A stretch of 58,477 nt of DNA, filler included, from Sphacelaria rigidula (GCA_964200075.2; 7 parts of 7 records of this genome joined end to end with filler, not necessarily neighbours in it), one strand, 5' to 3'. Counted from the first letter of the whole stretch, positions 8,270-50,210 are shown. A program made the numbers and translations. The notes: generated by a model from the sequence alone, not told the origin.

Positions 8270-8369
8270 NNNNNNNNNNNNNNNNNNNNNNNNNNNNNNN
8301 NNNNNNNNNNNNNTTAATTAATTAANNNNNNNNNNNNNNNNNNNNNNNNNNNNNNNNNNNNNNNNNNNN
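8270..8369. other. Artificial contig spacer
   Basis: N44-TTAATTAATTAA-N44 (stops in all six frames). Confidence 0.99.
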
Positions 8370-16638: not shown

Positions 16639-16738
16639 NNNNNNNNNNNNNNNNNNNNNNNNNNNNNNNNNNNNNNNNNNNNTTAATTAATTAANNNNNN
16701 NNNNNNNNNNNNNNNNNNNNNNNNNNNNNNNNNNNNNN
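16639..16738. other. Artificial contig spacer
   Basis: N44-TTAATTAATTAA-N44. Confidence 0.99.
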
Positions 16739-19014: not shown

Positions 19015-19312
19015 ACAATGTTTTCGTGACATTGAAAGTAGATGATACGATTGAAAGTGAAGACCGGTCGATTAGTGAATGAATCGTTTCAGTTCCGAAA
19101 CGCTCCCGAACGACGCCCGACATGCTTTCTGTAGTAGATTGCCACTGACGTCCTCGATATCCCCGAGTAGTATATCGACGTGTAGCTGTAAGCACACGCT
19201 AGTGATGGAGGCAAAGAAAACCACACACGGAATACAAAATTGGCTAAGTCAAAGCGAATGATCAAAGTCAGTCTCAATCAGCGCTCAACCCTCGATCTCA
19301 CGAATACGTTGT
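19015..19312. mobile_element. ~300-bp MITE with ~40-bp TIRs (consensus ACAACGTTTTCGTGAGATTGAGAGTAGATGATACGATTGAGAGT), probably TA-flanked
   Basis: Colinear with 46139-46438; TIR fragments also at ~41616-41662 and 50038-50110. Confidence 0.8.
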
Positions 19313-19727
19313 TACGCGTGGAAGGGTTGAAGTGTGACCAGTATTCACGCGATCCAACGCCACTTGGAAACGGTCGCGGGTTTGAAAAATACGACTTGGG
19401 CAAAATAGTTGTCTTTGGAAGCTGCAAACAATCAACCATATTAGAGAGTTTCGAAAAATGGGTGTATTCTGCGAGAATACTAGGTTTATGTTGGCGGATG
19501 ACGAATTATAAGGGATGTACTCTGGCGTATGCCGAACTTGAAATGAAATGTATGGATTCGTGTAGCCAAGGCGCCACCGTCGCAGAGTGTTGTTCAAGCG
19601 AGCGAGACTGGTCTAGTGCAAGAGCATCAAAGAAGCAGACAGTATCACTCGAGACCAGTTGATCAAACAGCAACACGCCAGGAGTCTCAGTAGTACAGTA
19701 GCCTCTGGCACTTTATCGATTTTTACA

Positions 19728-21401: not shown

Positions 21402-22685
21402 TTGAAACGCATCATCACAGATCTAGCCGTCACTTGCACGAGTCTCGTCCGACTCAACCACGGAAGAATCGGGGACGTAGCAAAGGGGCTCGGCGGTACG
21501 TTACTGTTACCGCCGATGAACCTGAGAGACATCCAGGAGTATTTCGGAAACCAAAAACACTTTCCTCGGATACGAGAACTCCTGCACATGATAGAGTACG
21601 GAGTTCCAATGAACACATCGTCCCGCGACCCCGATCCTCGAGGAGCGCTAAAATACGGTAATCACCACAGTATCAAAGAACATATGCCTCAAGTCTGAGA
21701 GAAGTTGGTAGAGGATGTACAAAGGAACAGATGTCTGGTGTTTGAAAAAAGGGCGGCGCTCGAAATCAGCGGCCTCAGAGTAGCCCCGCTTGAGGCAGTA
21801 GTAACTAGTAAAGTCAGGATTATCAACGATTTTTCGTTTGACCCCAACCTACCGAAGGGAGAGAAAGGCGGCTTCAACCGGAACACGATTGTGGACGAGG
21901 TGCCGCAGTTCCTGTGCGGGGAAGCACTCCCAAAATTACTGAATGAACTCTTGAAGGTACGCGTCAAGTTTGCGGATAGTAGAATCCTACTGTCAAAGGC
22001 GGACGTCTCGAATGCATCCAGAAATGCCAGGATCGCGCCCGACCAGGCGCAAAACTGCTGCTACGTGGTAGACGACGTTACAGTTGCAGACTTCCGTCTC
22101 ACGTTTGAATGGGCGGGGTCCCCCGGCTACTGGAGACTCTTATCACACGCCACTGAAGATGCACACTGCAATATCATAATACTCGACGCCGCAATACTCG
22201 AAGAAAGTAGAGAAATGATGAAACACGTGACCATAGTCGAGCACTGGGGAGAAGGGACGCCTACACAGGTTCCGCCCGACGCTGCTATTCCCCCGGCAAA
22301 CGGGGGGACTACTGTACACGACCCCTTTTTCGTTAGCGTGTATGTGACCGCCTGCGCTATGCAGATGTTTAAGGGCGAAATGCCCACAGAGAGAGGGGAT
22401 CCAATCCTGATGCGCGGCGAAAACTCGTCGGCCGTACACTGGGTAAATTAATGCGGGGGCTCGAAAGACAGACGCGCCGCCCTCCTGATGAGAATGATGG
22501 GTCGCATGGAAGTCGCAGCCGGGTGGTGTACCACCGCGAAACACATACCCGGCGTCGAAAACGAACTAGCAGGCGGCATCTCGAGACGGCCGCAGTCGGG
22601 AGTGGCCGAGAGGCTAGCACGGTTATCAGGGACCCTCAGTTGGAAGCAGCAAGATCTAGGAAATCGAGGCAGAGAGATACTCTAA
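21402..22685 (+). pseudogene. DIRS/Ngaro reverse transcriptase-RNase H, with in-frame stops and an internal deletion
   Basis: One frame: YGNH, KVRIINDFS, LSKADVSNASRN, DFRLTFEWAGSPG, VSVYV (DD missing), then RNase H MRGENSSAVHWVN and AKHIPGVENELAGGISR. Confidence 0.9.
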
Positions 22686-22800
22686 ATGATTCGGCGAGAA
22701 AAACCCCTGGAGCACAGCCTAGACGAACAGATCTGGAACATATTGTCCCGACAAGAAGACTGAACCCACACTGAACTTGTGATACCATTGCAGGACATAA

Positions 22801-23868
22801 GGGAGGCCCCACCGGAGACGAGGAGGGTGTTGCAAAGCTAGCAGAACTACTAACCCACGCGTCAATTAACGCCAGCACAAGAACCGGGTGCGAGACAAAG
22901 TTCGAAACGTGATCCGAGTGGAGGGCTCGCCGAGAAAAGCCCGTCTATATGTCAAGGACTGACGGCGAGGCTAGCGCGGTAATCGATATCACTGAATATA
23001 TTGCGTGGCGGCTTTTTACCCACAAAAACCAGAGGGGGACAGTGCGGGGGTATTTGTCAGCGATGAGCTTTTACCACAAGATGTGTGCCGGTTGGGAGCT
23101 ACCTATGAAACACTGTATTATAGCGGCCGTGTTCAAGGGAGTTGACCGAGCACACGGAAAATCGAAAGTAAGGCCCCGCGTGCGAAAACCGCTGACGCTA
23201 TCGCTGTTGGTAGAAGGGAGAATGCTAGAGATGAACACGACACAGAGCCGAGTCACATGAATAGGCCTAGCCCTATCATTTTTCCTCCTGTGTAGGGCCT
23301 CCGAAATCTGGGCATACAACGATTGTTCGGTACATCCAGACTTTTGCGTCCGGAGGGGAGACCTTACCTTCTTCAGAGAAAACTCCCAACTGATCTGGTC
23401 AGGCAGGGGCATGGCTGATAGGGTTGGGGTGCATATCGGAGCCTCCAAGGCGGACCAAAAACGCCTAGGGGCGGTTGTATCTCGGACAAGAGTAGGGGGA
23501 AGTGCGCGGGGCGCCGAAAGATGTAAAGACATAGAGACGCTAGAGCTCCTACTCAAGCTGCTTGACTACCACTCAGAGTTGGGAGCAGAAGCTCCACTGA
23601 TGCAAACCGTAAGACCCGATAGGTATCAGTCACTCGGGCGCGCGCGACGAGCGCGCTCAGGCAAATAATTTCCAGTACGTGGAGGGACCCCACGCAGAAA
23701 GCGCTACTCTCCGGTAGGATCGAGGCGGCGACACATCTAGCGGCGCAGGGGGCGTCGCAACTGCAAATTCAGAGGGCGGGGAGGTCAAAATCGCTGGCCT
23801 TCATGACGTACGTAAGAGCGGGGGGCGAAGGAGCGAAATTCGTATCGCAGGCACTCGCTGGGGAGTAA
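22801..23868 (+). pseudogene. Tyrosine recombinase of the Ngaro element, disrupted
   Basis: TVRGYLSA, RKPLT, FFLLCRASEI, ASKADQ, LLSGRIEAAT, IQRAGRSKS, FMTYVR; stops and a frameshift. Start is approximate. Confidence 0.9.
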
Positions 23869-25007
23869 AGTACAAACAAAGAAAAAAAATGAAAAATGAA
23901 GTGAAACAAAAGAGGAGATGGAAAAAGGGAACAGATCGGGCTGCCCAACGGGGTAAGAGTGACCAAACGCAAGGGCGGTCCAATATCAAGTACAGTAGTC
24001 TTGGGTTAGCCCGATAGTTTCCCAACTGCGAGAACGCGGTCTTGTCTCGCAGTTTTGTTTGTATTAGTTTTCCGTTTTTTCTACATCCCAATTAATCCAA
24101 AATACTTGAGTCAAAAGCAAATGGGTGTATTCTGCAAGAATACGAGGTTTGTGTGGGCGGGTGACGAATTGTAAGGGATGTACTTTGGCGTATGCCGAAC
24201 TTGAAATGAAATATATGGGTTCGTGTAGCCAAGGCGCCACCGTCGCAGAGTGTTCTTCAAGGGAGCGAGACAGGTCTGGTGCAAGACCATCAAAGAAGCA
24301 GACAGTATCACTCGAGACCAGTTGACCAGACAGCGACACGCCAGCAGTCTCAGTATTCCGGTAGTCCCTAGCACTTGATCGATTTTTCATGCCCACGACC
24401 CTATCGCTCACGGGAGGGAGGGAGGGAGGGAGGGAGGCACCAGGCTTCAGATTACATGGATGAAGTGATGGGGGGGGGGGGGGGGGACCAAACGCAAGGG
24501 CGGGCCAACATCAAGTACAGTAGTCTCGGGTTAGCCCGATAGTTCCCCAACTGCGAGAACGTTTTTGTCTCGCAGTTCTGTTTGTAATAGTTTTCCGTCT
24601 TTGCTACATCCCGAATAATCCATGATACTTGAGCCAGAAGAAAACACTTTTTCCCATCTTAGAGTCAGAGTGGAAGGAAAAATAGTCGGTGACGGTGCAC
24701 TTTCCGCTATGAAGTATTATTGAGAGCGATTATTTCAGAGTGAGGGCATATCTTAGCACACTAGTTTTTTATACAAATTGTGCGGTGGAAAATCAAAAGG
24801 ACAATGGCCTAGAAAAGGTATACCATCTCGTTTTTTGCCTAAAAAAGGTACAGAAAAAAGCCAGAAACGCGAAAACTGCAAAACGCGCCATTTTGACCGT
24901 TTTCGCTCCTAATTTTTCACGCACATCATTCGGAGGGGGGCGTATTCATTTGTTGCTTGCCTTAGTCGTGTGACCATTGATCACGCATCCCTTTAGAGAC
25001 AGATCAC

Positions 25008-25107
25008 NNNNNNNNNNNNNNNNNNNNNNNNNNNNNNNNNNNNNNNNNNNNTTAATTAATTAANNNNNNNNNNNNNNNNNNNNNNNNNNNNNNNNNNNNN
25101 NNNNNNN
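25008..25107. other. Artificial contig spacer
   Basis: N44-TTAATTAATTAA-N44. Confidence 0.99.
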
Positions 25108-25203
25108 TCATTGGGCACCATCGCTGAAAGTGTAGGGAAAGCACTTTTTTAGGCATGAACCTCATCTCGGAGTTAATCCTCAATTCGCACAATTTGTTGT
25201 TCA

Positions 25204-25932
25204 ATGGTGAGGGAGAGTGACAGCTCCACGTATCGAGATTGCAGGGGCACGAAGCTGCAGCACGACAGGTATACAGGACCTTGGATGGTGAAAAAGGTAC
25301 TGGTGGTCGAACACAGTCTCGAGATAGTGATGCAAGGACGAAAACTACGTACTCTCACTGTAGCCCCGTCTGATGTCAAACCGTACCATGTACGGTCGCC
25401 GCACTTGAGACACTCCATTGCCGACGAGTTCGCCCAGTTTGCATGGGGGTCGGACTTCAAGATATCGTCTTCGCCTAACTCCACACCCCGCCTCCTTACC
25501 CTAGCGAACCGCCGCGAGTGCAAATCAGGGAAAGGAAGTGCACGTTGGGAGTACCAAGGAAGGACTCAGGAGGGGGCGACGTCAGAGTGGCTTCCAGAGA
25601 GCAAAGCCCTGGAAAGCTTCACACCTCTGCAACTGGATGGGTTTCACGCACTCTGGTGCCTTTACCACCCGGCCAAGACACCAAGTACGCCGTCTCGCCC
25701 GAGCATCCGCCATGCCCCCCTGTCATGCAGTGATGTCCTGAACTTGCTCCCCATAGATTTCACCTTCTGGAAGAATTTCGGTGGGGTCAAGCAGAAGGGA
25801 CAAGTGTTCGACTACGGGAAGCGTTTCTGGAGAGTGCGATACGACAACGGGGACTGGGAGGAGTTGTCACGGAGAGAATTCCAACGGCTAGCGCAGTCGA
25901 GCGAGACGGCAACACCGCCAGTCAAGAACTAG
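25204..25932 (+). CDS. C-terminal tail of a Ty3/Gypsy Pol (integrase GPY/F region, chromo-like and Tudor-like modules), 5' truncated
   Basis: KLQHDRYTGPWMV...VKPYH (GPY/F motif); WEYQGR...SEWLPE; FWKNFGG...GQVFDY...WRVRYDNGDWEEL; lies upstream of a PPT and LTR. Confidence 0.75.
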   Translation: MVRESDSSTYRDCRGTKLQHDRYTGPWMVKKVLVVEHSLEIVMQGRKLRTLTVAPSDVKPYHVRSPHLRHSIADEFAQFAWGSDFKISSSPNSTPRLLTLANRRECKSGKGSARWEYQGRTQEGATSEWLPESKALESFTPLQLDGFHALWCLYHPAKTPSTPSRPSIRHAPLSCSDVLNLLPIDFTFWKNFGGVKQKGQVFDYGKRFWRVRYDNGDWEELSRREFQRLAQSSETATPPVKN

Positions 25933-27086
25933 GAAGCGGCAAAATTGAAAAAAAAAAGAAAAAAGAAGAGAAGGGCACCAGAGGGACAAAGTGTAAAGTA
26001 TGAACCCTCTAACACGGTACCTTAAGCGTGTGCAGTCTGCATCCTTTTTATTTATTTACATATATAGTTTTGGGAAGCAGGTACGAGTCGTTTCTTGAGT
26101 ATCCTTTTTTTTCTCTTCCTTTCTTCGCTCCCTCCCCTTCCTTTTTTATATGGATATAAACTTCTGACGGATGGATCTTGTTGGATTCGCCGTTTTTTCG
26201 TCTTCCCTGGGTTCCATAGCCTTTTTTCCTTGTTTTCTACAGCCCTTTTTTGTCCTATAATGACTATACGGCTCCTCTGTTTCTTCACAGCTTGTTTTTC
26301 TCGTCCTGAATGAATGCGGAGTTGTGGTGCCCTTTTCCTCGCTGTGTACTTTTGCTTTTATATATATCTTTTTTCTCTATTTTCCTTTTTTTTCCCCTCT
26401 GTGGTCAGTCCTAGTTCCGATTCATGTTTTTTCTTTTTTGTCTCCGTGAATGCGGATCCGACTTCAGGGTGCCCCACCCTTTTCGAGTAGACAAAATTTA
26501 TGTCGTAGAATTAGCATTGTGCAAGAAGGGTGGGCACCGAGCACCGTCCTGGACACTGTATCATGACAGAACCCTTGATCAAGATGCAAGAGCCCCCGGT
26601 GTCCAGTACGTCAGCCGTTGCTGGTCGACGGAAGAAGAGCCTACGCACTTGCATCCGCCAGAAAACGTATTGTTTTTTTCTAGTGGGTCAACGTTTTGCG
26701 AGTCTCACACTACCCAGGATTGGTGTAATCAATCAGGGGTGTCTAAGCGCCGTTACCACCTTACCTGAAAATAGTTTTTGACTAGTCTCAGTGGTTTCTG
26801 TTCCCAGTGAAACTGGGATCCCGGGACGACATAGCACATGCAAAAGCACTCGCTATGATCCGAAAGGGCGTGAGAGATTATCTTCCCAAGCGATGAGGTT
26901 TTCTCCCCTGAAAACCAGGTTTGACCTATCTTTTGATTTCATGACGAGTTTTTTCCGTGGTCATCGCTAGCCCTGAAATTCCGCGGTTTTCTCGTCGATA
27001 TAAGGCTGATGGCATGTATTTGAGTGGATTTTCCCCGGTATGAAATAAGCCGTGATACTCTCTACTTTGCATTGTGCAGCGCGCAC

Positions 27087-27103
27087 AAAGCAAGAAAGGG
27101 GAA
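27087..27103 (+). other. Polypurine tract
   Basis: AAAGCAAGAAAGGGGAA immediately before TGTTACGG. Confidence 0.7.
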
Positions 27104-27530
27104 TGTTACGGCGGATATCAGTCGCTTATATAGAAGGCGTTCTCGATGTGTGTGATATGGGTGATGGGTCGTATTCCAGCGTTACTTTAGTCGGGCTGTA
27201 TTCCAGTCAGGTCTTGCAGTACGGTATCACCCCCCGCCCCGTCAATCGTTTCTAGCTACCTCGCAAGCCTAATAACAAAGCTATCAGCCACCACCTGGAG
27301 ACATCTCGCTTGCAAACAAGTCAAGAGCACTCTTCTGCACGTGAAAGTGAGTTCCTGCTTGGCCTTACGATGCAGTGGTGGTTGGACTCAAAGGTCTGTT
27401 GGTCACGAGTTCGAGGGTCGCTCCTCTACTGCGATCGTTCGTTGCGGCCAGCCGCTGGCTTCGTGTCACCCCTGGCCTGGTATGTTCCTTGAGAGTGACA
27501 CCAGTATCACCTCATGACCAGACCATTACA
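27104..27530 (+). repeat. Single 427-bp LTR
   Basis: TGTTACGG...CCATTACA termini (imperfect inverted repeat), PPT directly 5' and PBS directly 3'. No second copy in the window. Confidence 0.75.
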
Positions 27531-27561
27531 TGGTGTCCGATCCGAAAATCGAACTCGGGTT
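27531..27561 (+). other. tRNA primer-binding site
   Basis: TGGTGTCCGATCCGAAAATCGAACTCGGGTT is complementary to a tRNA 3' end from CCA through the TTCGA loop; isotype not determined. Confidence 0.75.
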
Positions 27562-28148
27562 TCCATAGCTACTGTAGTGTTCCGTCGCGTTTGATTCCTT
27601 CCTTCACAGTGACCCATGTTTTATTTTGTTTCTACTTCCATATTTTGGGGTGGGTGGGTTGGGAATGATTTCATGTATCTCATTCGGATTTGCACAACGA
27701 CCCTTATTCATTTAGTTGATGGGATATTTGATTCGTTACGCCATGCTAGATTTTCCCGTTTTTTTCCCGTTACTGTTACAGCAGTGTCTCCTATCCCTGT
27801 GTGCCTCGTTTCGCTACAGCACTTTTGAAAGCAGCAACTTCCGTGTGGCACATAAAACATCAGACGATTCCACACTAATACTACGTTTCGTCGTCCGCCC
27901 CTGCCGCTTTTGCTGTTCGAGTTTGCTTGCCCCGAACGCACCTGCGCAATGCCCCGACACATATCATGGTCGTCGGTGTCGCACCATACCATGTCGATGA
28001 CAGGGGACTTCCTCCCCCATCGCAATTTCGCATGTGCGGGCACCCACGTGTCTCTTATAACCATTCTTATTATATTTTTCCTCACTACCTATTCATATTT
28101 TACTGCCTCCGCCCGTTATCGCATGCCGCTCTTCGACGATTGATAAAG

Positions 28149-30399
28149 ATGTCTGCTCCCAACAACCACTACGACAACTACGGTAGAAGCGCCAATGCCG
28201 CCTCTGCAAACAATCTACGGGGCAGCGACTCCCGCCGCCCATCAGCGGGTCGAGCAGGTGATCTAGGGGCTGCTGCGCCCCATCACCCCTATCACCTACG
28301 CAGCGGCGTGCTCTCCGACATCGAGGGGAGTGGCAGTAGCGGTGGCGCTGCCGGGGATCTCGACCCCCGGGCGCCCCCCCCTAGCACCGTGCACCACAAA
28401 AGCCACGAGGATCTCGACCGTCGCTCCCCATCGAGGCACCACAGGCAGGACAACCGAGACATCAGGCTCTCGACCTCCCGCTCTCGGAGCCGCCACCGCT
28501 CTCGTTCCTGATCACGGACAGAGCGCCCTTCTCGCTCTCGCCCCCGCCGCCACCGCTCCCGCTCCCGCTCTTGCTCTTGCTCTTGCTCTCGCTCTTGCCG
28601 CCGCCGCTACCGCCGAAAATTTCGCTTGCCCTCCCGCAGCAGGCGTCAACACCGTGCCATGAGGTGGGGGTCCTGGGAACGTCGCCACCACCGGGAGGAG
28701 CACAGGGCGTACCGGCAGCAGGCGGATACCGGGTGGATAAGACGCTAGAGTTGTGAAGCACCAGGAGCAGCAGCTGGAGCTGCGGTTCAACGTCTGGAAT
28801 CTAACCAGCTAGCGAAGGGGAGCGAACGGGTACGTAGGCGTATTTCGCGCGGTCGACCATGCCCAGTGTACGTAGGACCAAGTGCGGGGGAACTATCGTT
28901 TGTTAACAGCGCTGTCGTGCTGCAACACCAGATATGGTCGACGCTGCGTGCAATGGACCAGGGGATCTTGAAAGTGTCGGAGGATGAATACGTCAACGAT
29001 AAGTGGATAACACAGAGAGATCAGTACTCCGCCCGCCGGTGCGAACTCCTAATTCAGCTGCTGGCAGAAACTAGTGTTACGTTCACGTCCCTAATCGCAG
29101 CGGATCGAGTAGACGTTTATCGTATCACGGGCGAAACCGATACCGTCCCACATGAATCCGTGACTATTGCCGACTGGCTACGGATCCTCGTCCGTGAGGA
29201 AGTAATGACGAACGGCGCCACTAAGTTCATACACGCTGCACTCGACTCCATCACCTTAGGACCCAACGAGTCGTGGAGTGCGGTAACGAAACGGGTGTTG
29301 CTAGCATTTCACGCGAGTTTAGCAAACCCGGACCGACCATACAGTATCGAAGCCGCGTATTTCTGGCGATTCATCTCCACCCGGCAGCTAAGCGAGCTTT
29401 ACGATCGTACTATCCGAGTCGTTTTACCTAACCCGGTTGATAGGCTAGGTCTAGTGTCGATCCTCCATGAAAAGACACGCGCAATCTGGGCCAGACTGCA
29501 GCCTCTGAGGAGCGAGTGGCATCATCCAATGGGGTAAGCAATGCAACGAAGGGAAGATGTGGCCAAGAGTCTTTAGCAGAACTTCATACGTATCGTGTGC
29601 GCCCATAACGTGGCATATACAGCGACGACAGTCACGCCCGCCCCCAAACGCGTACTAGCAACCGCGGCGCGGGACCTGACAGGTTATTTTCACTTGAGAA
29701 AGGAACTTGCTACAGTCGCCCCCGGAGGGCGCCGCAATGCTCCAGGAAGCTATCCCGGGGTCACTTCCCTCCTCCGAAGTGCCGCCCGCCCTGTCAGCCC
29801 CTGCTGCGTCCTCTAGACCCCACGCGTAAGCCGGCCACCACTCGGCAGCACCTTCCGTCGCGGCGTTCAACAACCACCTGGCGGCCTCACCGGGCATATA
29901 CGACGTGCCCTTCATGCAGCAAGCCTCGACGCCCATCAACCCCGGTCCTCGCGCCACGACTCCGGGCCATGCCACCGCACCCCGCGCGGGAGATTTGTAG
30001 CACAAACCCCCGGCACCGCCGTCTGGGAGCGCTTCGCCGTCACCGATACCCGTCGCATCCGCTCAGCCAGTTGGTCCGGCCTCGACTCCCGAGCCATCCA
30101 TACCGTTAATTGCGGCGGGACGCGACGCAGTGGTCACCTTCGTACGTGATCGTAAAATCTGCTTCGGTTACGCATTCTCCGGCTCGTGCCGTCACCGGGG
30201 CAACACTCCTTGTCCTTGGACGCACGGTATCATCCCGGTCGCACACTACAGTGGCCTACCGGCCCGCCGCAAGACGGCCATTCCCCAACGCCGGCTGGCC
30301 GCGCTCACGGAGGCACAATACTTGGCAGCAATCGACCTGGGTCTCATCGGCGAAGACCACGACGACGACGTCGAGGATATGCTGAGCGCATCCGGGTGA
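28149..30399 (+). pseudogene. Gag-position ORF of the Ty3/Gypsy element: RS-rich N-terminus, helical core, CCCH zinc finger; disrupted
   Basis: Lies between PBS and protease; ORFs 28149-28511, 28866-29537 and 29595-29816 share a frame; CFGYAFSGSCRHRGNTPCPWTH at 30160-30225. Confidence 0.7.
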
Positions 30400-30737
30400 G
30401 GCCGCCGCTAGCGACACTCGATCCGACGCGTGGAGACGCGCCCCAGGTTCAATTGATCTGGGGAGCCTTCGCCGACCCAGCGCCACCACAATATCCCAGC
30501 ATCGCGGAAGGCAGCTTTGGAGGACGGTCAAGATCTGGCTCCGACGGCGTCTCCGTCGGCCGTGGCCGACAGAAGTCTTGTTGGATATGGGATTGGGAGT
30601 TGGCAACTACATGTCAGGAGCGTTATGGCGCAGCTTGCGCAAGGCCAACATCTTGGACGATACGCCATACCCTGAGGCGGCAGGTTTTCTCTGTGCGACT
30701 AATCCATCCCAGAGTAAGGTCCCCCCAATGCGCATGA

Positions 30738-31434
30738 AACACGGGATCTTACAAATTCGGGATGGGTATTTTATTGGGATGAAAAACCCGGAGAATTAAT
30801 ATCTTCGTATCTACACCAAATCTTCGAAATACTGTCCCATTTCTTCACCTACTGGACACTGTCTAGAATAGCCCCCCCCCAAAAGTGCATGGTTTTGGGA
30901 GGCAGAATCTTCACGTATATCGAAATGTGAAAAACCGAGAACAACAAGAAGCTGGGAATTCCCACGCTTGGGTTCGTTCTAGGCAATGTCGCCAATATGA
31001 GGCGCTTCATGTAGCCTGAACCCGAACATCAGGCGCTGTATGGTCCTCTTTTTCGTGTCACTTTTGAGCTGGTTTTGAGGGGGGGGGCTATCGTAAAAAG
31101 TGTCACTGATAGCTACTGACAAGTGCTACACGCCATAGAAAATTGAATTCCGATCACCAAAATGTTGAGGTCCTAGGTGAAAAACCAATTTTGGGGAATT
31201 TCGGGTGTCCGAACGGACGCCAGCATGGTTCCGAAATGGGTCTTTCACCTAGGATCCCAACATTTCGGTGATCGAAATCCGAGTTTCTGTGGCGTGTAGT
31301 AGTTGTCAGTAGCTATCAGAAGGTGAAGAAATGGAACAGTATTTCGAAGATTTGGTGTGGATACGAAGATTTTGATTCTCCGGGTTTCTCATCCCCAATA
31401 AAAGATCCATCCCCAATTTGTAAGATCCCTTGTT
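30738..31434. mobile_element. Foldback element (~440 bp without its insert, ~200-bp arms) inserted in the protease
   Basis: AACACGGGATCTTACAAATT...AATTTGTAAGATCCCTTGTT; the arms mirror each other once 30855-31108 is removed. Confidence 0.85.
30855..31104. mobile_element. 250-bp MITE (GACAC...GTGTC TIRs, ACTG TSD) nested in the foldback element
   Basis: ACTG at 30851-30854 and 31105-31108; removing it restores the host palindrome. Confidence 0.9.
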
Positions 31435-32565
31435 ATAATCGGTTCCGTAACTGTGCCCTTGCTTTTAACCTCCGACTCATGGGTCTGTAATGTAACATTA
31501 CGAGTAGTGGAGGGCGTGCCGTGCGGCTTCATTTTAGGTGTAGATTATTTACGGTACAACAACAGTATCCTAGATTTCGCCCAAGGAAAAGGGTCCCGCC
31601 CCTCGCTAGCGGCGCCGTGGATCCCGTTCCTGACGAGCGAAAATCCCACCTACCACATTCAAGACATATTTGTAGCTCTGTACACCACGACGGAAACCAC
31701 CGCCTCCCTAGCGGCGCCCGCTTGCCCGTCCCTTCACAACTACCCCAGCTACCGTGACATAGCTTGGAAAGACGACAGCACCCGAGAGTGAAAGCTGCGC
31801 TTGGTCGGACAAACGATCATGCTCAGCGGCTTCGTCAGCGCTATGGTAGAAACAGCCGCGATCGGTCCTCAACCACAGGATAGGCAGCTTGTGCTTGTAC
31901 TTCCACAGGCAAAGTTTGATCTAGACAAGGGGGCAGAGGTGGGGATCGCGAAGGGAGTATCGTGGTGGCAGCCGGGGTCGCCGGTGTACTGCAAACTTGT
32001 AAATAGAAGTAAGGAGCAGGTAGTGCTGTAGCGTACTGGTACTGTCGCGTGTATGATAGCACTGAACGTACGCGACCCCGCTGGGTTTCACTCACTGTTT
32101 GACCCACATCCGTCTACAACAGACCCCCCCGTGGACCCCCTACCCCGCGCCTCACGTTCAGACAGTAGTTGCTCGGCCCAACCAGACCCCAAGGTCAACG
32201 TGACGGACGCCAACATGGGCCAGCTTGGAGCAGCGGAAAAGGGAGAGCTGGTAGATACGCTGTTGAGCTTTATCGAAGCTGAATTGTTCCCCACAGACCC
32301 CAAGCGGGTTCCCGCTTGTATGAACGGTGAGCTCGAGCTCCCCCTCACTAACGAGTCATGTATGCCATTCGCAGCTAAGCAACGTCGATTTTCCCCGGAG
32401 AAACGTCACATGATCCGCGAAGAGATACACAAGCTTCTTCATCGCGGGATCATTCGACCCTCAACCTCCCCGTGAGCAGCCCAATGCCTATGCGTGAAAA
32501 AAAAGACGGCACCTTGCGCTTGTGCATTGATTGGCGTGAACTCAACAAACTCTTTATGTCGGACA

Positions 32566-32730
32566 GACACTTTCTACGACAGCCCCCCCCAAAACCAGCT
32601 CAAAGTGTCACGAAAAAAATGACCATACAGCGCCTGATGTTCGGGTTCAGGCTGCACGAAGCNNNNNNNNNNGAAGATTTTGCCTCCCAAAACCATGCAC
32701 TTTTTTGGGGGGGCTATCGTAGAAAGTGTC
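32566..32730. mobile_element. Same MITE family, opposite orientation, GACA TSD, inserted in RT (contains a 10-N gap)
   Basis: GACACTTTCTACGA...TCGTAGAAAGTGTC; removing it gives in-frame LNKLFMSDSRDLGDVQSILDGL. Confidence 0.92.
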
Positions 32731-33230
32731 GACAGCAGGGATCTCGGGGATGTGCAATCCATTTTAGACGGCCTCGAAGGTAAGCGCTACTTCACCCAAC
32801 TCGACCTGGCCTCTGGTATTCACCAAATCGAGATCGCGGAGAAATACCGCTTCGAAATGGCGTTCGAGATGCAGGTGGCCTCTTATACGAGTTTACACGA
32901 GCAGGTTTCGGTCAACAGTTCGACCCGCCGCGTTCACCCGTCGGGTAAAAGGTACGGTAGGACAGTTCGATGGGGTGTTCACCTGGCTTGATGATATCCT
33001 TATCGCGACCGCATCCTGGGACGAGCATCTAGCTCTACTCGTGATCGTATTACAACGCTTGTTGGTCGCGGGATCCTCGGTGAACTTCGTCAAGTGCATT
33101 TTTGCATCGGTGTCGCAAGAGGTTCTGAGCATGCTGGTAGATAGCTGTGGCCTTCAACCTGCGCCATCCAAGCTCGCCGCCATCGCCGAAAGGCCCAGAC
33201 CATCCACCGTCGAGAAAACTACGTACTTTC

Positions 33231-33375
33231 GACACTTTCTACGATAGCCCCCCCCCCAAACGTGCATGGTTTTGGGAGGCGAAATCTTCACGTATATCGA
33301 AATGAGAAATGCCGAGCACAACGAGAAGCTGAGAATGCCCCCGCTTGGGTTCGTTCTAGCCATTGTCGCCAATAT
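33231..33375. mobile_element. Third copy of the GACAC MITE, cut by contig end
   Basis: GACACTTTCTACGATAGCCCCC...; body colinear with 30855-31000. Confidence 0.88.
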
Positions 33376-33475
33376 NNNNNNNNNNNNNNNNNNNNNNNNN
33401 NNNNNNNNNNNNNNNNNNNTTAATTAATTAANNNNNNNNNNNNNNNNNNNNNNNNNNNNNNNNNNNNNNNNNNNN
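33376..33475. other. Artificial contig spacer
   Basis: N44-TTAATTAATTAA-N44. Confidence 0.99.
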
Positions 33476-35592: not shown

Positions 35593-37533
35593 CTTCCTCT
35601 TTGGCTGTTGCGTTTCTTTCTTGTACCGATTTGTATCCCTGGCTGCCAGCTGTGTACTCCAGCTTTTTGATCATTTGCCCCCTTTTCCCCTTCAGGACGG
35701 CTTTAGTCAAACCTACCGCCAGGTAGTCAGTAGCTCTACAAGCTTCTGCCCCGCGTGTCTTTCGATAAAGTATTTGTGCCCAGCTACTTGCAAGTGCTGT
35801 AGCGCTCGACGACACATCTAGTGTGGCCAACGTGGGGTCAACGCGCACTGCTTGCTATTCCGCCGTGCTGTCAATTTGACATCACCTGCACAAGGCTCCA
35901 CGGTATCAGGTCCGCCTGTACGTCTACGATCTTTCGTGATTCACCAGCCCGGTACGACCACCGCACCAAGCCATCGTTGGCTCGTTTATTTGGCCTTGTG
36001 GCCCCCTTTCCTTCTACAGAATAAGCCTTCCACTACAGGTTTGTACAGAACACCAGTGCACAAAGGCGCACTGTTGTTCATCGCCAGCCGCTGTTCCTAA
36101 TCTGAGCTCCTGCCAAGCCGGCACGCTGCTGCTTTTTTTTCCGTATCGATTGTACGCGACTGTTGTATCTTTTCTTCACGAAATTACTGAACAAGTACAA
36201 ACCGTGCTCACACAGTGTGATAACGGACATCTGTACACGAACGTTGGATTGTTCTGGCACTTTACCTTCGTTGCTCGTAGAAACCTTTTGTTGTTGTAGC
36301 TTTAGCTTCATTGCTGGTGGCTACTTTGTTCTTGTTGTTCTCTTGTGCACTTCGCACAACCGTAAGGCAACGCGGTACATCACCGTCGTAAGTAACAATA
36401 CACAGCATAACGTACTGTGAGTTTTTCCTCCTTTGACCCCTTCTCGAACGAACAAATTTATTGTTCCGAAACGGTTTCGTTGAAATACTACTAGTTGAAA
36501 CATTTCAACCTCCGTTACGTGCTTATTTGAACAAACAGCACCTGAAATCGGTGCCCCTTTGCCTGTGCACTACATTTTTTGGCACCGCCCTCAGCGTTGT
36601 CCTTGCTGCGCAACTTTTGTGTGCATCATACGTTGCCTCGACTTCGTTGGATAACTAGCCTTCGCTCTGCACTACGCAGCCAGATTTCGCAGCCCCATAC
36701 CCAAGCTTTGTAAAAGCTTTTGTGTTGCATCGCACTGTGCAACTTTCGTGCGCATCTGAAAGCGAAAAGTTTCAGTTGCACACCGCCAGTTGCCCCTCAG
36801 TCTATCCCGTGATAATATAGTTGTAGTCTGCCTGTGACGCACACCCGGAACACGTATAGGTTTTACGACTTCCACGTACCAAAGTTGCTGCAGAAAATCG
36901 GGTCCTCGTTTTTTCTTCGACGACATACGTCTGTCCTGTGCACAATTCCGAGCTCCGTTGATAGCCCTAACCGCCACAACCTTAATAAAGTTGTACTAAC
37001 CAGACCCCGGACATAGTTGTTACATACAGCAATTCGCTTTAATAAATTACTCAAGCACATCGGGTCCCACGGTCCCCCCAAGCGCTATTAGGCTTTATTA
37101 TCCAGCAATTTCGGATATAAGCTCCGACTTTTGCACGTAGCAGCTCGTTTGTCACGCTCCTTTAATTAGAGCTCACAGACCAGACATACTGCACCTGCCT
37201 TTTTGAAATAAAGGTTGAGCACTAATATCATGTCGCACAACAATATCGCTGGCTCTTCCCCTCAATTGAGAAACCAACTGCTTCGCCGGACCCGAAGTCA
37301 AACTACTGGCGGTTCAAAATCTTTCAAGATGACCGGCACGCCACCTTCAACACATCGCCGCACGTATGCGAGCGCTGTTCGCTCTTCGGGATCTGAAGAC
37401 CAACATTCGAGCGAAGCTCATTCTTCAACACTTGAAGACCAGACTTCGAGGCCGAGACCTGTTCTTTCACGTTCCGACTTGAACTCAGAGAACATGGTAG
37501 TGCACCCGGCCGAGTCATTGGTTCCTGACGCGC

Positions 37534-40266
37534 ATGTCAGTGCATAACGGTGGATTCCGTCGCACACCCTCGCTGGCCCCTGTTCCCCCGAATCCCAATG
37601 TGGAATCCGGAGTTAGGATTGTGCCCTCAGTCGAGTCAATGCCCCTGGACAAACGTGTCCAGCTCGGCCCTGCCACGGTTGCTTCAACCATGGCACCCCG
37701 TCGCCTGACAGTTGACAACTCTCGAGACAATCCTGTCCCGACGAAGCGCATCGCTTCTGGAGAAAGAGACTTTGTCACACGGGCTGCTTCCGTTACGGAC
37801 CCCCTTCGCACGACTCTTGATAGTCCCATGAGCCCTACTGCGCAGTCCAATGTCGGACCTGCAGTTGCGACCATGCATGCTGCCATGCAAACTCTGCATC
37901 GCACCTCCTCGGCGTCATCGCTATCGCCAGCGCCAGCTCTCATCAAGACATTTACGGCTTTTTGCCACGCCAAGCTCCAAGACCAGTCGAAGTCTGCTCA
38001 TGTGCAATTCAATGATGATTCTGCACCTGCCACGCCCAAACTCGTATGTCTAGCGACCCGTTCGGCGACATCGCGTCCTCCGTTCGTCACTCATGATAAA
38101 TTCAACGAACATGAGTCCAGCCCTTCCTCAACGTCGCAACAGAGCCATACTCGTGCTTCTGACCGGCGCCGCACACCGAGACTTGGTCATGACCATGTCT
38201 CTCGTTCTAGCAGTTCTAAGGGCCACTCCCAGCAAAGCTTGAATTCATCGCGCGCTTCCACACGCCCGAAGAATATCGGTTATAGACACAAATATGAAGG
38301 TAGTTCACGCCATACTTTCAATTCATCTCGCGCTCCAAAGCGCCCGGTGAATGCTAACCATGGCCGTACTCACGAGGATGCCTTGCAGCCCAGATCAAGT
38401 TCTTCGCGCGTGAACTCGCGTTCGAACAACTCCGATCATGCACCTCCGCGCATCTCTACTGCTCAGCCTTTGTCACACAACCGTTATGTACGCAATGATA
38501 ACACGGTACATGCTGACGATATCCAAAACATATTTTCGTACATGTCACCGACCCCGGAATCCTCACTTGCAGGATCCGACCGCACCTCATCGCACAAACG
38601 ACGACAACGCACTGACCGCGAACCACCGTCTCGTTCCGATGCTGCGCTTATTCGCTCTCTGCAACAACGTTTGACAGATCTTGAACGACAACTGCCAACA
38701 GCAACAATGGACACCAAGGGTACTACCGCTGCGGCGAAGCCTACGAGGGAGACCACCAACGCCGCTCCCACTACCACCGCAGCCGCCACTACCGTGGTCA
38801 CTGCGCTTTCTGCAGTAGCCACTGCAGCCACGACCCCAACTCCTGCTGCCGCCCAGCTTTCAGTAGACACTGATGCGGACAGTGGTCCCACCACTGCCCC
38901 TATCGGGGACGTCTCCGTGCGCTCGCCTCCTTCGGTGGAGGATCTTCCTCCGTTCGGCGTCGAGCATTGCCCCGCCGGGCTTCTCTTGCGATTGTTCCAG
39001 GACCGCCCCCACGCGGAACAAGAACACCTCATCCAAGACTACAAGCGCCAAGCCCCGGCGCTAATTCGCAGTCTACTCGACCAGCAACGCAGTGCTGACG
39101 AGGCTGCCGCCCGCCTCCTTTTGGAGGAACATGCTGCCAAGCTGGAGGATTTTCAGCGACAGGCTTCACTCGCCCAAGCCACCAAGACGGTGGCACACAG
39201 AGCATTGCACGAAGGAGAGACTGCAGCCTTGACGGCACAAAGGAGGGTTCGCGAGCTACAAGAGCATGTTCGGCGAACTACGCAAGAAGCTGATTCGTCG
39301 ATGGCGCGAGTGATTCACCATCAAGCCTCCCCGCCGCCTTCCGCCGACCACTTGCTTGAAGCTCGACATCCTCTACAGTCCACGCCCACCAGGTCAGACT
39401 ACGTGATGCCACGTAAGTCCGACAGGGCGTCCTCTGGAGCAACCGCCGCCGCCCCCACGCCGTCTCGTGTACCTGGCCCGGCGGTCACTGCCAGCCCCAC
39501 CACACGCTTGCAACTTGCTTCACACGAACAAGTATGGCTTTCTCGGTCTGCGGCTGATTATACCGGCCCCTTTCACCGAAACAATCACCTGCACTGTTCC
39601 CGCCACGCTTGGAACATCATCTCGCAACGTATGTTAGCCGTTATTGGCGGCTACGTGGAACAGGGTGGCTTCTTCCCTGATGACGGCGTGTCGGCGATCA
39701 CCTTGGGCCAACTGGTCCTCCAGGCGACAATCGGCGATAGTCCGAATCTCAACCGGTACGTCGACACTGTCACCAAGCTTTTTGCGGCGCTACGCGCCGC
39801 TTCTAGCTCTGAACCCGCTGCGCCTCTTCGCGACGACGACGAAGATGAGGATGGGTGGACCACCACGACCTCCAATTTCCGGGGTCACAAGAAGAATCAC
39901 CGTCGCGATGACGATGATAACGATGGAGGGAATTCACGCCGCCGCCATGGTGGTGGAGGATCCTCTTCGGGCGGCTCCGGATCGAACCACCCGCCCCGCA
40001 AGCCGAAAGGCAAGCACACCGGAGGTAACTCTTCCGGCTCATCCGCATCGGCCTGGAACCGGTCCGGTGCAGCTCTTCCCGCCTCGGGCTCGGAGACCTC
40101 CAGGCAAGTAATTCCTAGGTTGGCTGATGTTTCGGCCCGCATTTTAGGTTTGTCCGATATGGATACACCTGACCGTCCTTTGTCTTCTACTGCAGCCCGC
40201 GCTTTAGCAACCGCCGCGGCTGACAAAGAACGTTCCGAAGCTAGCAAAAAAAGCAGCTTTCGATAG
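37534..40266 (+). CDS. 910-aa low-complexity ORF, N-terminal part of a giant Gag-like protein
   Basis: Intronless, S/T/A/R/P-rich with coiled-coil-like segments; continues after a stop and frameshift into a CCHC-containing ORF. Confidence 0.6.
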   Translation: MSVHNGGFRRTPSLAPVPPNPNVESGVRIVPSVESMPLDKRVQLGPATVASTMAPRRLTVDNSRDNPVPTKRIASGERDFVTRAASVTDPLRTTLDSPMSPTAQSNVGPAVATMHAAMQTLHRTSSASSLSPAPALIKTFTAFCHAKLQDQSKSAHVQFNDDSAPATPKLVCLATRSATSRPPFVTHDKFNEHESSPSSTSQQSHTRASDRRRTPRLGHDHVSRSSSSKGHSQQSLNSSRASTRPKNIGYRHKYEGSSRHTFNSSRAPKRPVNANHGRTHEDALQPRSSSSRVNSRSNNSDHAPPRISTAQPLSHNRYVRNDNTVHADDIQNIFSYMSPTPESSLAGSDRTSSHKRRQRTDREPPSRSDAALIRSLQQRLTDLERQLPTATMDTKGTTAAAKPTRETTNAAPTTTAAATTVVTALSAVATAATTPTPAAAQLSVDTDADSGPTTAPIGDVSVRSPPSVEDLPPFGVEHCPAGLLLRLFQDRPHAEQEHLIQDYKRQAPALIRSLLDQQRSADEAAARLLLEEHAAKLEDFQRQASLAQATKTVAHRALHEGETAALTAQRRVRELQEHVRRTTQEADSSMARVIHHQASPPPSADHLLEARHPLQSTPTRSDYVMPRKSDRASSGATAAAPTPSRVPGPAVTASPTTRLQLASHEQVWLSRSAADYTGPFHRNNHLHCSRHAWNIISQRMLAVIGGYVEQGGFFPDDGVSAITLGQLVLQATIGDSPNLNRYVDTVTKLFAALRAASSSEPAAPLRDDDEDEDGWTTTTSNFRGHKKNHRRDDDDNDGGNSRRRHGGGGSSSGGSGSNHPPRKPKGKHTGGNSSGSSASAWNRSGAALPASGSETSRQVIPRLADVSARILGLSDMDTPDRPLSSTAARALATAAADKERSEASKKSSFR

Positions 40267-41577
40267 GGCTGAGTCTGCCCGACTAGCTGCAATACAGAGA
40301 CAGTATATTCAGATGGATGTGAAAAAAACTCTGGCACATCAAGACTATGCCTGCCGCGGATAGCGAAGATTCGGGCCAGTTTACTTCTGACCTTATCACG
40401 TCCATCCGCCGCACTGTTTGTAACATCCTTCACTTGGCGGATGTGACTGGCACACAACGTTTCGAAGACTCAGACTGGGTATAGGGCTGGCAGACTCCCT
40501 TGCACGAAGCAATGCATCGATCGATCAGCCGCCGCTCTCCCGACCTCACTGCTTCTTTGACGCAGGTGCTCGACGGATTCCTCGCCGAGATGGATCCGGA
40601 TCGTTCCCAAGGGAAGACAGGCCCGCAATTACTCTCTGATTTGGAACGGCGTCTCATTGGTTACTTTGACAAAAGTGATCAAGCCAGCCTCATCCAGAGG
40701 CTGAGTTCTTTTGTCGTCGCATCTGATATCCCCTTCGCGGATTATCTCTGCGAGTTTAAGCTTTTGGTTTCGGGTACGACGGGTGTCGGGCGCCAGAATG
40801 GACCGAGCGATGCAATGTGTCAGACTTATTACGTTCGCAATAGCGTTGCTCAACAGTATCCGGCTCTGATGCCGTCGTTATTTCCGGGTGTCTTGGCGCA
40901 TCGTGAGGTGCTTTTCGCCTGCCTTGATGCTATGTGGTCTGATTTTGTACACCAGGAGAGTAATCTAACACCTGCCATACGTGGCAAACCTTCAATGTCT
41001 GCGCGTTCACAACCTACGGTTGTGTCCCCTGCTCATGCCCAAGGGGCTCGCGGCAGGAATTCGAGTTCGTCTCGCGCTTCATGGACCCCCGACTCAGTCG
41101 CCGGTTCAGCTATGCATGTTCAGAGTACCAGAGATGCATTTAGCGCGAGTTTTGACGGTTTGCCGTTTTCCGAGGAAACTTGGGATTATGTTTATCTGAC
41201 TTCAACCTTGGCATTCATAACCGATGACCCCCATTCGTGGAAACCCCTTCTTTCGTCTTCGGCTAGACGCAATGCCTTCAGCAGTCATTCCAACAGTTGC
41301 ATCAACTGTAGTGTTCGAGGTCACAGCATGCGCGACTGTGACAGTCCATGCATCGACGCCTTTGATCTCATGAACCCTGAATTGCAGGACAATGAACCCG
41401 CGTGACGCCGATGGCAAAAAACGCATGCGCGATTATCGTCCACCAACTAAAAATTACCGCAGCAATTCGAACCAACGTGGCAAAAAAAGCTCTAACCGCG
41501 GTCGCCGACACAACAACAATCACGGAAACCCTCGACAGAACGACAAACAATTCTCGCGACAACAAACGCCCCGCTGA
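40267..41577 (+). pseudogene. Gag core with CCHC zinc knuckle, disrupted
   Basis: CINCSVRGHSMRDC (CX2CX4HX4C) at 41298-41339; PFADYLCEFKLLV resembles the Gag major homology region. Confidence 0.75.
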
Positions 41578-41743: not shown

Positions 41744-41843
41744 NNNNNNNNNNNNNNNNNNNNNNNNNNNNNNNNNNNNNNNNNNNNTTAATTAATTAAN
41801 NNNNNNNNNNNNNNNNNNNNNNNNNNNNNNNNNNNNNNNNNNN
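41744..41843. other. Artificial contig spacer
   Basis: N44-TTAATTAATTAA-N44. Confidence 0.99.
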
Positions 41844-50110: not shown

Positions 50111-50210
50111 NNNNNNNNNNNNNNNNNNNNNNNNNNNNNNNNNNNNNNNNNNNNTTAATTAATTAANNNNNNNNNNNNNNNNNNNNNNNNNNNNNNNNNN
50201 NNNNNNNNNN
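50111..50210. other. Artificial contig spacer
   Basis: N44-TTAATTAATTAA-N44. Confidence 0.99.

Follow-up and report, generated by a model that had tools for sequence, protein, structure and literature searches.

Structure of the locus

The window, that is the whole stretch of 58,477 nucleotides that was analysed, is composed of seven pieces of about 8.27 kb with N44-TTAATTAATTAA-N44 linkers between them, and neighbouring pieces are not necessarily adjacent in the genome. An integrase tail is located right at the beginning of piece 4 (25108-33375), so that the sequence upstream of 25108 is not visible. It belongs to an open reading frame on the plus strand, from 25177 to 25929 (protein P0001, 251 open codons), which is closed by a TAG at 25930-25932. 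The initial annotation had described a series of motifs in one uninterrupted frame, and all of them were found in this frame in the order given: YTGPW, LANRR, WEYQGR, SEWLPE, a Pro/Ser-rich linker, FWKNFGG and GQVFDYGKRFWRVRYDNGDWEELSRREF. In the following, "tail" designates the product of 25384-25929, and tail residues are counted from 25384. The features of the locus, together with the linkers of the window, are listed here.

8270-8369, 16639-16738, 25008-25107, 33376-33475, 41744-41843 and 50111-50210: linkers between the pieces
25108-25203, strand not given: unrelated and far more abundant repeat, not Pol, which abuts and cuts the Gypsy copy (tblastn, contig ends)
25204-25383, plus strand: remnant of the integrase C-terminal SH3-like/GPY/F domain (..VRESDSS..KLQHDRYTGPW..VKPYH), which aligns to relatives
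25267-25281, plus strand: GPY/F-type motif, here YTGPW (ORF translation)
25384-25488, plus strand: conserved segment before module 1 (LRH..ADEFA..AW..D), one helix predicted (conservation, AlphaFold2)
25489-25671, plus strand: module 1, predicted chromodomain fold of three strands and a C-terminal helix, tail residues ~36-96 (AlphaFold2, VIA-align)
from 25498, plus strand: LANRR (ORF translation)
25672-25725, plus strand: Pro/Ser-rich flexible linker of 18 residues, tail residues 97-114 (AlphaFold2, identity)
25726-25908, plus strand: module 2, predicted PTM/DIR17-type Tudor spanning tail residues 115-175, its four strands lying between a first helix and a C-terminal one (PF21743, AlphaFold2)
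25930-25932, plus strand: stop codon TAG of Pol (sequence)
25933-25992, plus strand: purine-rich run after the stop codon, candidate polypurine tract (read from the sequence)
30509-33244, plus strand: degenerate second copy of such a Gypsy element, 5' half from protease to RT (tblastn)

Using full-length relatives as tblastn queries, homology to Pol was found from 25204 onward only, because a different high-copy repeat occupies 25108-25203. Among public contigs, 55 of run X1 and 54 of run X4 lose the match at 25201 and go on with unlike sequences. Contig depth summed over the repeat, which does not measure copy number, exceeds that over the Gypsy tail about 100-fold, and the repeat has a sharp end at 25201-25203. 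It contains stops in all three frames, and in-frame stops lie upstream of 25177. A reading of 25109-25200 as frameshifted Pol was rejected, the public contigs identifying this stretch as a separate high-copy repeat that ends at 25201-25203. In view of the junction at 25204, the locus is a dead 0.73-kb fragment of a multi-copy Gypsy family. One X1 contig end just before 25204 reads VTEGDLV, which indicates that other copies extend further upstream and there contain the Pol motif GDLV(L)VRESDSS, common to all relatives.

At a likeness of at least 90%, a 1.9-kb stretch received 3,343 pieces of X1 contigs and 2,592 pieces of X4 contigs. The cover at this threshold drops sharply at 25940, just past the stop codon, which reflects either a divergence of more than 10% in the non-coding 3' part or a second cut of the copy at this place. 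The contigs of two runs, which are only guessed to be RNA and are indistinguishable from DNA, tile 25204-25939 at about 90-95% likeness. None of the runs in which the stretch occurs is listed as RNA, and the one descriptive label among them is 'algae metagenome'. Ty3/gypsy elements carry long terminal repeats (LTRs) on both sides, with a polypurine tract ahead of the 3' LTR. An LTR pair could not be delimited, since the piece starts inside the element and contains no long direct repeat between 25108 and 33375.

The second copy in the same piece (30509-33244) shows 37-61% identity, in several frames, to Pol residues ~1-680 of the relatives P0002, P0004, P0006 and P0009. Three MITE-like copies of about 165-250 bp (30855-31104, 32566-32730 and 33231-33375) all lie inside its decayed Pol, one of them in the opposite orientation. 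They have terminal inverted repeats of 24-25 bp that end in C/G runs, and apparent flanking duplications of 4 bp.

Other parts of the window were also inspected. Two near-identical stretches, 19298-19612 and 24111-24386, are about 4.8 kb apart and flank ORFs (21699-23868) that resemble, by eye, a tyrosine-recombinase-type retroelement and have no Pfam match. An open frame of 921 codons (37501-40263, plus strand) gave only RRP7 in Pfam (E 0.083, 13.4 bits) and no usable Atlas match. It is followed by a frame of 306 codons (40485-41402, plus strand) with only a weak CCHC zinc-knuckle match (E 0.09). A Pfam search of 29 other ORFs of the window returned one weak RVT_1 match only, a laxer scan of six ORFs nothing usable, and an Rfam scan of the window 0 matches. 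The dinoflagellate spliced-leader motif also has 0 matches in the window, and none of these scans yielded a marker of the host.

The tail as the C-terminus of Gypsy Pol

The Pol polyprotein of Ty3/gypsy elements comprises RT, RNase H and an integrase made up of an H2C2 zinc finger, an rve core and a GPY/F C-terminal domain. At the window locus itself only the GPY/F remnant and the tail are present. A search among longer proteins yielded eight homologues with E-values from 2e-71 to 3e-42 and 37-52% identity over 91-95% of the query, all eight of which carry integrase domains in Pfam. In P0002 (1647 aa), P0004 (1521), P0006 (1559) and P0009 (1978) the domains RVT_1, RT_RNaseH, Integrase_H2C2 and rve are followed by the tail, with the RT-RNase H-integrase order of Ty3/gypsy. 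The stretch 25204-25383 aligns downstream of the rve core, with residues ~1416-1475 in P0002 and with the corresponding position in P0004, P0006 and P0009. P0009 also contains, between RNase H and integrase, an insertion (residues ~870-1430, about 550 in all) that has no Pfam match at E<=5 and includes a glycine-rich stretch resembling, by eye, motif I of SAM-dependent methyltransferases.

A phmmer search with the tail against 1.84 billion cluster representatives gave 248 hits at E<=1e-3 and 96 at E<=1e-10, mostly short fragments; RT and/or integrase domains were found in six of the nine listed representatives of at least 400 aa. Given the E-values of the eight homologues and the 248 representatives, the motifs of the frame stand far above chance. 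The match to the tail ends 1-14 residues before the protein end in 11 of 17 relatives of at least 400 aa, 22-56 residues before it in 4/17 and 132-152 residues before it in the remaining 2/17. A degenerate copy at a metagenome locus (L001) reads H2C2-rve-GPY/F-module 1-Tudor, with a stop directly after the Tudor. The tail therefore belongs to Pol and is joined, in intact relatives, to the rve core of the integrase, a fusion that the initial annotation had named as a check and that P0002, P0004, P0006 and P0009, which all end in the tail, bear out.

Mean pairwise identities among these four full Pols were 0.68 for RT, 0.67 for RNase H and 0.63 for the rve core; 0.51 for the GPY/F domain, 0.49 for the chromo-fold module and 0.51 for the Tudor. 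The Pro/Ser linker reached 0.27 and the linker between RNase H and integrase 0.38. By these values both modules are kept like a functional integrase subdomain, above the level of the linkers. The segment preceding module 1 is conserved as well: each of the tail residues R4, L8, H10, D14, E15, W21 and L27 is kept in 81-92% of the cluster representatives, and its predicted helix (residues 12-20) has a pLDDT of 59-79 in AlphaFold2.

A predicted chromodomain fold in module 1

The tail was modelled with AlphaFold2 from an alignment of 82 sequences (A1), with a mean pLDDT of 84 and a pTM of 0.50, a value at which no fixed mutual orientation is predicted for the two modules. The linker between them has a pLDDT of 64 over residues 101-110. 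A chromodomain folds as a three-stranded antiparallel sheet packed on a C-terminal helix, in about 50-60 residues. Module 1 is predicted to form strands at residues 38-47, 53-61 and, shorter, 66-70, followed by a helix at 81-94, with a pLDDT of 90-95 over residues 41-90. It was also modelled alone, from a second alignment (A2, mean pLDDT 81).

Both models were compared with 48,161 PDB chains using VIA-align, whose Z-scores below 8 can, as the tool warns, reflect a common arrangement. For the whole tail, 13 of the best 50 rows fall on module 1, and all 13 are of chromo type. Twelve of these are so by entry title or residue range, and the thirteenth is a ribosome chain that we take to be eEF3, carrying a chromo-like insert. 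The best match was the Oxpecker chromodomain 7vrf_A (Z 5.8, rmsd 2.5, 58/61 residues), and further matches included Chp1 (Z 5.3, 53/55 residues) and HP1 (Z 5.1, rmsd 2.1, 51/53 residues). With module 1 alone, the top 24 of the best 50 rows, and 36 of the 50 overall, were chromo or chromoshadow domains (best Z 4.8); 31 of the 36 were assigned by title, and in the other five the matched stretch is presumably their chromodomain. Chromoshadow domains of Chp2, HP1alpha, Swi6 and Rhino were among the structural matches of module 1.

At the sequence level, Pfam gave no chromo family at E<=10 on the window ORF, and at E<=0.1 in none of the 57 alignment members spanning module 1. Profile searches of PDB sequences returned chance-level rows only and no chromodomain. 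Foldseek against the PDB found nothing at E<=1e-3 for either model, the sole rows covering nearly the full domain of module 1 being chromo or chromoshadow domains of CHD1, CHD6, Swi6 and HP1; against BFVD it gave nothing informative for module 1. A homodimer test with two copies of residues 30-100 scored 0.00, which is no answer either way. The chromo-like module proposed by the initial annotation is thus borne out by the predicted fold and by the ranking of its matches, and lacks a counterpart in sequence, with Z-scores of at most 5.8. We read module 1, from the models, as a real chromodomain fold, homology not being proven.

Two motifs of the module, W-x-Y-x-G and S-x-W-x-x-E, presumably occupy strands on which the conserved aromatic and Trp residues of chromodomains are found; W55 is conserved in 96% and Y57 in 86% of the representatives. 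From the predicted strands, we tentatively take tail residues 38, 57 and 61 to correspond to the HP1 cage. The window has L, Y and T there. All three positions are aromatic in 50 of 94 representatives, and the pattern of the window, with one of the three, occurs in 18. The one-aromatic subgroup of the window includes P0002, P0004 and P0006; P0003, P0007, P0008 and P0009 look complete. With one of three aromatics kept, this subgroup looks like a group-II-type or degenerate reader. As described in the accessible part of PMC3605345, group I chromovirus chromodomains keep the Y-W-Y cage of HP1 and group II chromodomains are without the first and third aromatics, so that only the middle one is kept, as in the window's subgroup.

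A predicted Tudor barrel in module 2

The Tudor is a small SH3-like beta-barrel of four to five strands. Module 2 matches PF21743, the PTM/DIR17-type Tudor family, with E 5.8e-6 and 26.4 bits in the whole ORF and 27.1 bits in the tail alone, against a Pfam gathering cut-off of 27.2; the relative P0018 reaches 29.8 bits. The family was also found at E<=0.1 in 38 of 63 alignment members spanning the module and at E<=0.01 in 10 of 13 further representatives. In the ESM Atlas the tail fell to PF21743 clusters (0.81) and to a Chromo cluster (0.75), both below the trust level of the tool.

The AlphaFold2 model places strands at tail residues 127-132, 135-144, 149-153 and 158-161 (pLDDT 84-96). Module 2 takes 37 of the best 50 VIA-align rows of the whole tail, all of them SH3-like barrels. 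Ten of the 37 are named Tudor, among them those of SETDB1, SMN, FXR1, LBR and RDM15 (Z 4.5-5.6, with SETDB1 at 5.6, SMN at 5.1 and RDM15 at 4.5); the remainder comprise KOW domains, biotin-ligase C-domains, CarD and further SH3-like barrels. The fold alone indicates a small SH3-like barrel, and it is the PF21743 match that identifies the module as a Tudor. On both lines, sequence and model, we conclude that the last module is a predicted Tudor barrel, in agreement with the PTM/DIR17-like module of the initial annotation.

The window copy has aromatic residues at positions 132, 144, 153 and 158. Of 77 representatives, 24 are aromatic at all four and another 26 at the last three, and W149 and W158 are conserved in 87% and 86% of the representatives, respectively. 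AlphaFold had been suggested as a check of both segments, and it predicts a chromo-type fold for one and a Tudor/SH3-like fold for the other, so that the structural interpretation of the tail is supported, as far as models and sequence matches go.

Comparison with known systems

Among transposons, the choice of landing sites by chromatin state is clearest where the integrase is fused to a reader domain. To our knowledge, such readers have so far been almost only chromodomains, plus one Tudor reported in 2025. Gypsy integrase chromodomains recognise H3K9 methylation and guide insertion, according to the available portions of two sources (10.1101/2021.11.30.470311; PMC3605345). The first of these describes, in the same portion, the targeting of H3K9me by the integrase chromodomain of MAGGY, and the targeting role is also summarised in the accessible part of 10.64898/2026.05.21.726589. 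Chromoviruses (e.g. MAGGY, of group I) and the lineage of the window have the same order of domains in Pol, with a module of chromodomain fold directly after the GPY/F domain of the integrase. They differ in that the window lineage gives no Pfam chromo match (PF00385 or similar) and has a second predicted reader, the Tudor, as its true C-terminus.

A Tudor at the C-terminus of a Gypsy element was published in 2025 for Gypsy-10_Ec32 of Ectocarpus (Repbase synonym Gypsy-10_ES), which has a homologue in Tribonema minus (Genome Biol 2025, PMC12477816). In the part of that paper available to us it is called the first transposable element with a Tudor, the authors propose the acquisition of a chromatin reader, and chromodomain-bearing Gypsy lineages of the Ectocarpus genome are separate from Gypsy-10_Ec32. 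Gypsy-10_Ec32 and the window lineage share a Gypsy Pol that ends in a Tudor, a likeness known from the architecture alone, and an algal host, which for the window lineage is probable. Only the Tudor of Gypsy-10_Ec32 is annotated, and a chromo-fold module goes unmentioned in the accessible text; the comparison is one of descriptions and not of sequences. In the available part of de Mendoza et al. 2018 (PMC5890265), which deals with DIRS and LINE elements of Symbiodinium that carry a DNMT, a Tudor is not mentioned. Our full-text literature search found no description of a chromo-fold and Tudor pair on an integrase. Of the earlier suggestion that the architecture was undescribed, the part concerning this pair stands, and the part concerning a C-terminal Tudor on a Gypsy element had been anticipated by the 2025 report, as far as its accessible text goes.

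Module 2 resembles the PTM/DIR17-like Tudor (PF21743) in sequence, at or near the cut-off. RDM15, in its H3K4me1-bound structure (PDB 7de9), matched it with Z 4.5 and rmsd 3.1 over 54/58 residues at 24% identity. These Tudors belong to host regulators, whereas module 2 sits in a retrotransposon polyprotein. Two small reader folds in a row are also found in the tandem readers of the Royal family, such as the triple Tudor of SETDB1, the double chromodomain of CHD1, the SAWADEE domains of SHH1/SHH2 and the tandem Tudor of 53BP1, which were weak Foldseek matches of the whole model (E 0.007-0.15). In contrast to these, the two modules of the tail differ in type and are joined by an 18-residue linker of low confidence.

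Discussion

We consider it fairly probable that the divergent chromo-fold module and the terminal Tudor that follow the GPY/F domain constitute a chromatin-docking tail which biases insertion. Such a targeting role would be suggested by the position at the integrase's C-terminal end, by the known role of integrase chromodomains and by the reader nature of Tudors. In the proposed arrangement, the GPY/F domain would be followed by the chromo-fold module, a flexible Pro/Ser linker and the Tudor that closes the polyprotein. The pair of modules might then tie the integration complex to nucleosomes, or to chromatin proteins, carrying particular methyl marks, and this docking could bias the choice of insertion sites as the chromodomains of chromoviruses do. 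The contribution of the two modules may vary between relatives. In the subgroup of the window the Tudor would be the likelier active methyl-lysine reader; the chromo-fold module would be fully able to read in the relatives with three aromatics (50 of 94), and weakened or repurposed in the window's subgroup.

Alternatively, the Tudor may alone read chromatin, module 1 being either structural, as a chromoshadow-like multimerisation domain or a spacer, or nucleic-acid-binding, so that the tail would have a single reader like that of Gypsy-10_Ec32. The presence of chromoshadow domains (Chp2, HP1alpha, Swi6 and Rhino) among the matches of module 1, the single cage-like aromatic of the window's subgroup and of 18/94 representatives, and the absence of a chromo signal in Pfam all fit this account. 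We nevertheless hold it to be unlikely, since half of the representatives and more (50/94) are aromatic at all three positions, module 1 is as conserved as the Tudor, and group II chromodomains are, in the accessible part of PMC3605345, still kept on integrases without their first and third aromatics. Far less probable again, and in our view barely credible, is that the chromo likeness results from chance or from convergence on a small sheet-plus-helix, within a lineage-specific integrase extension that has no reader ancestry. It would agree with Z-scores of at most 5.8, with Foldseek E-values of at least 0.2 and with the lack of sequence similarity to any chromodomain in the PDB profile and Pfam searches, but the ranking is specific, the top 24 of the best 50 rows from 48,161 chains being of chromo type over whole domains, and W-x-Y-x-G and S-x-W-x-x-E are conserved on strands that presumably match the aromatic and Trp sites of chromodomains.

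The ligand, too, may be other than a histone. The tail could dock to a host protein carrying methyl-arginine or methyl-lysine, or to DNA/RNA, and act in targeting, nuclear import or particle assembly via a host factor. SMN-type Tudors, KOW domains, CarD and SH3-like barrels with non-histone ligands are indeed among the fold matches of module 2, and the conserved upstream LRH..DEF..W segment is without known fold or role. The sole family matched at the sequence level, however, is PF21743, a Tudor family of chromatin-associated plant proteins, and the integrase C-terminus is the site of known chromatin-targeting domains, which makes this account quite improbable.

The docking tail that we favour might be part of a larger picture, which is possible but rather doubtful at this stage: a probably algal, widespread Gypsy lineage with a bivalent reader, made of a cryptic chromodomain and a Tudor, that would choose its sites by combined marks or by one mark and a second chromatin feature. 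It would be the first two-reader integrase, and the brown-algal Tudor-Gypsy could be the same older and broader lineage, its chromo module having been overlooked.

A Gypsy integrase that bears a reader is already known; what is new is the presence of two putative readers, one of them cryptic. Surveys of fusions between transposable elements and readers that are based on Pfam miss divergent chromo folds. Relatives of the lineage described here number in the hundreds in databases, and at least one organism contains many copies of it. With two serial reader folds it would be a natural system in which to study how the combinatorial reading of marks steers integration, and its three-aromatic and one-aromatic subgroups may show how reader modules are captured and then degenerate. 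The tail lineage could also inform on the marks present in the chromatin of poorly studied algae.
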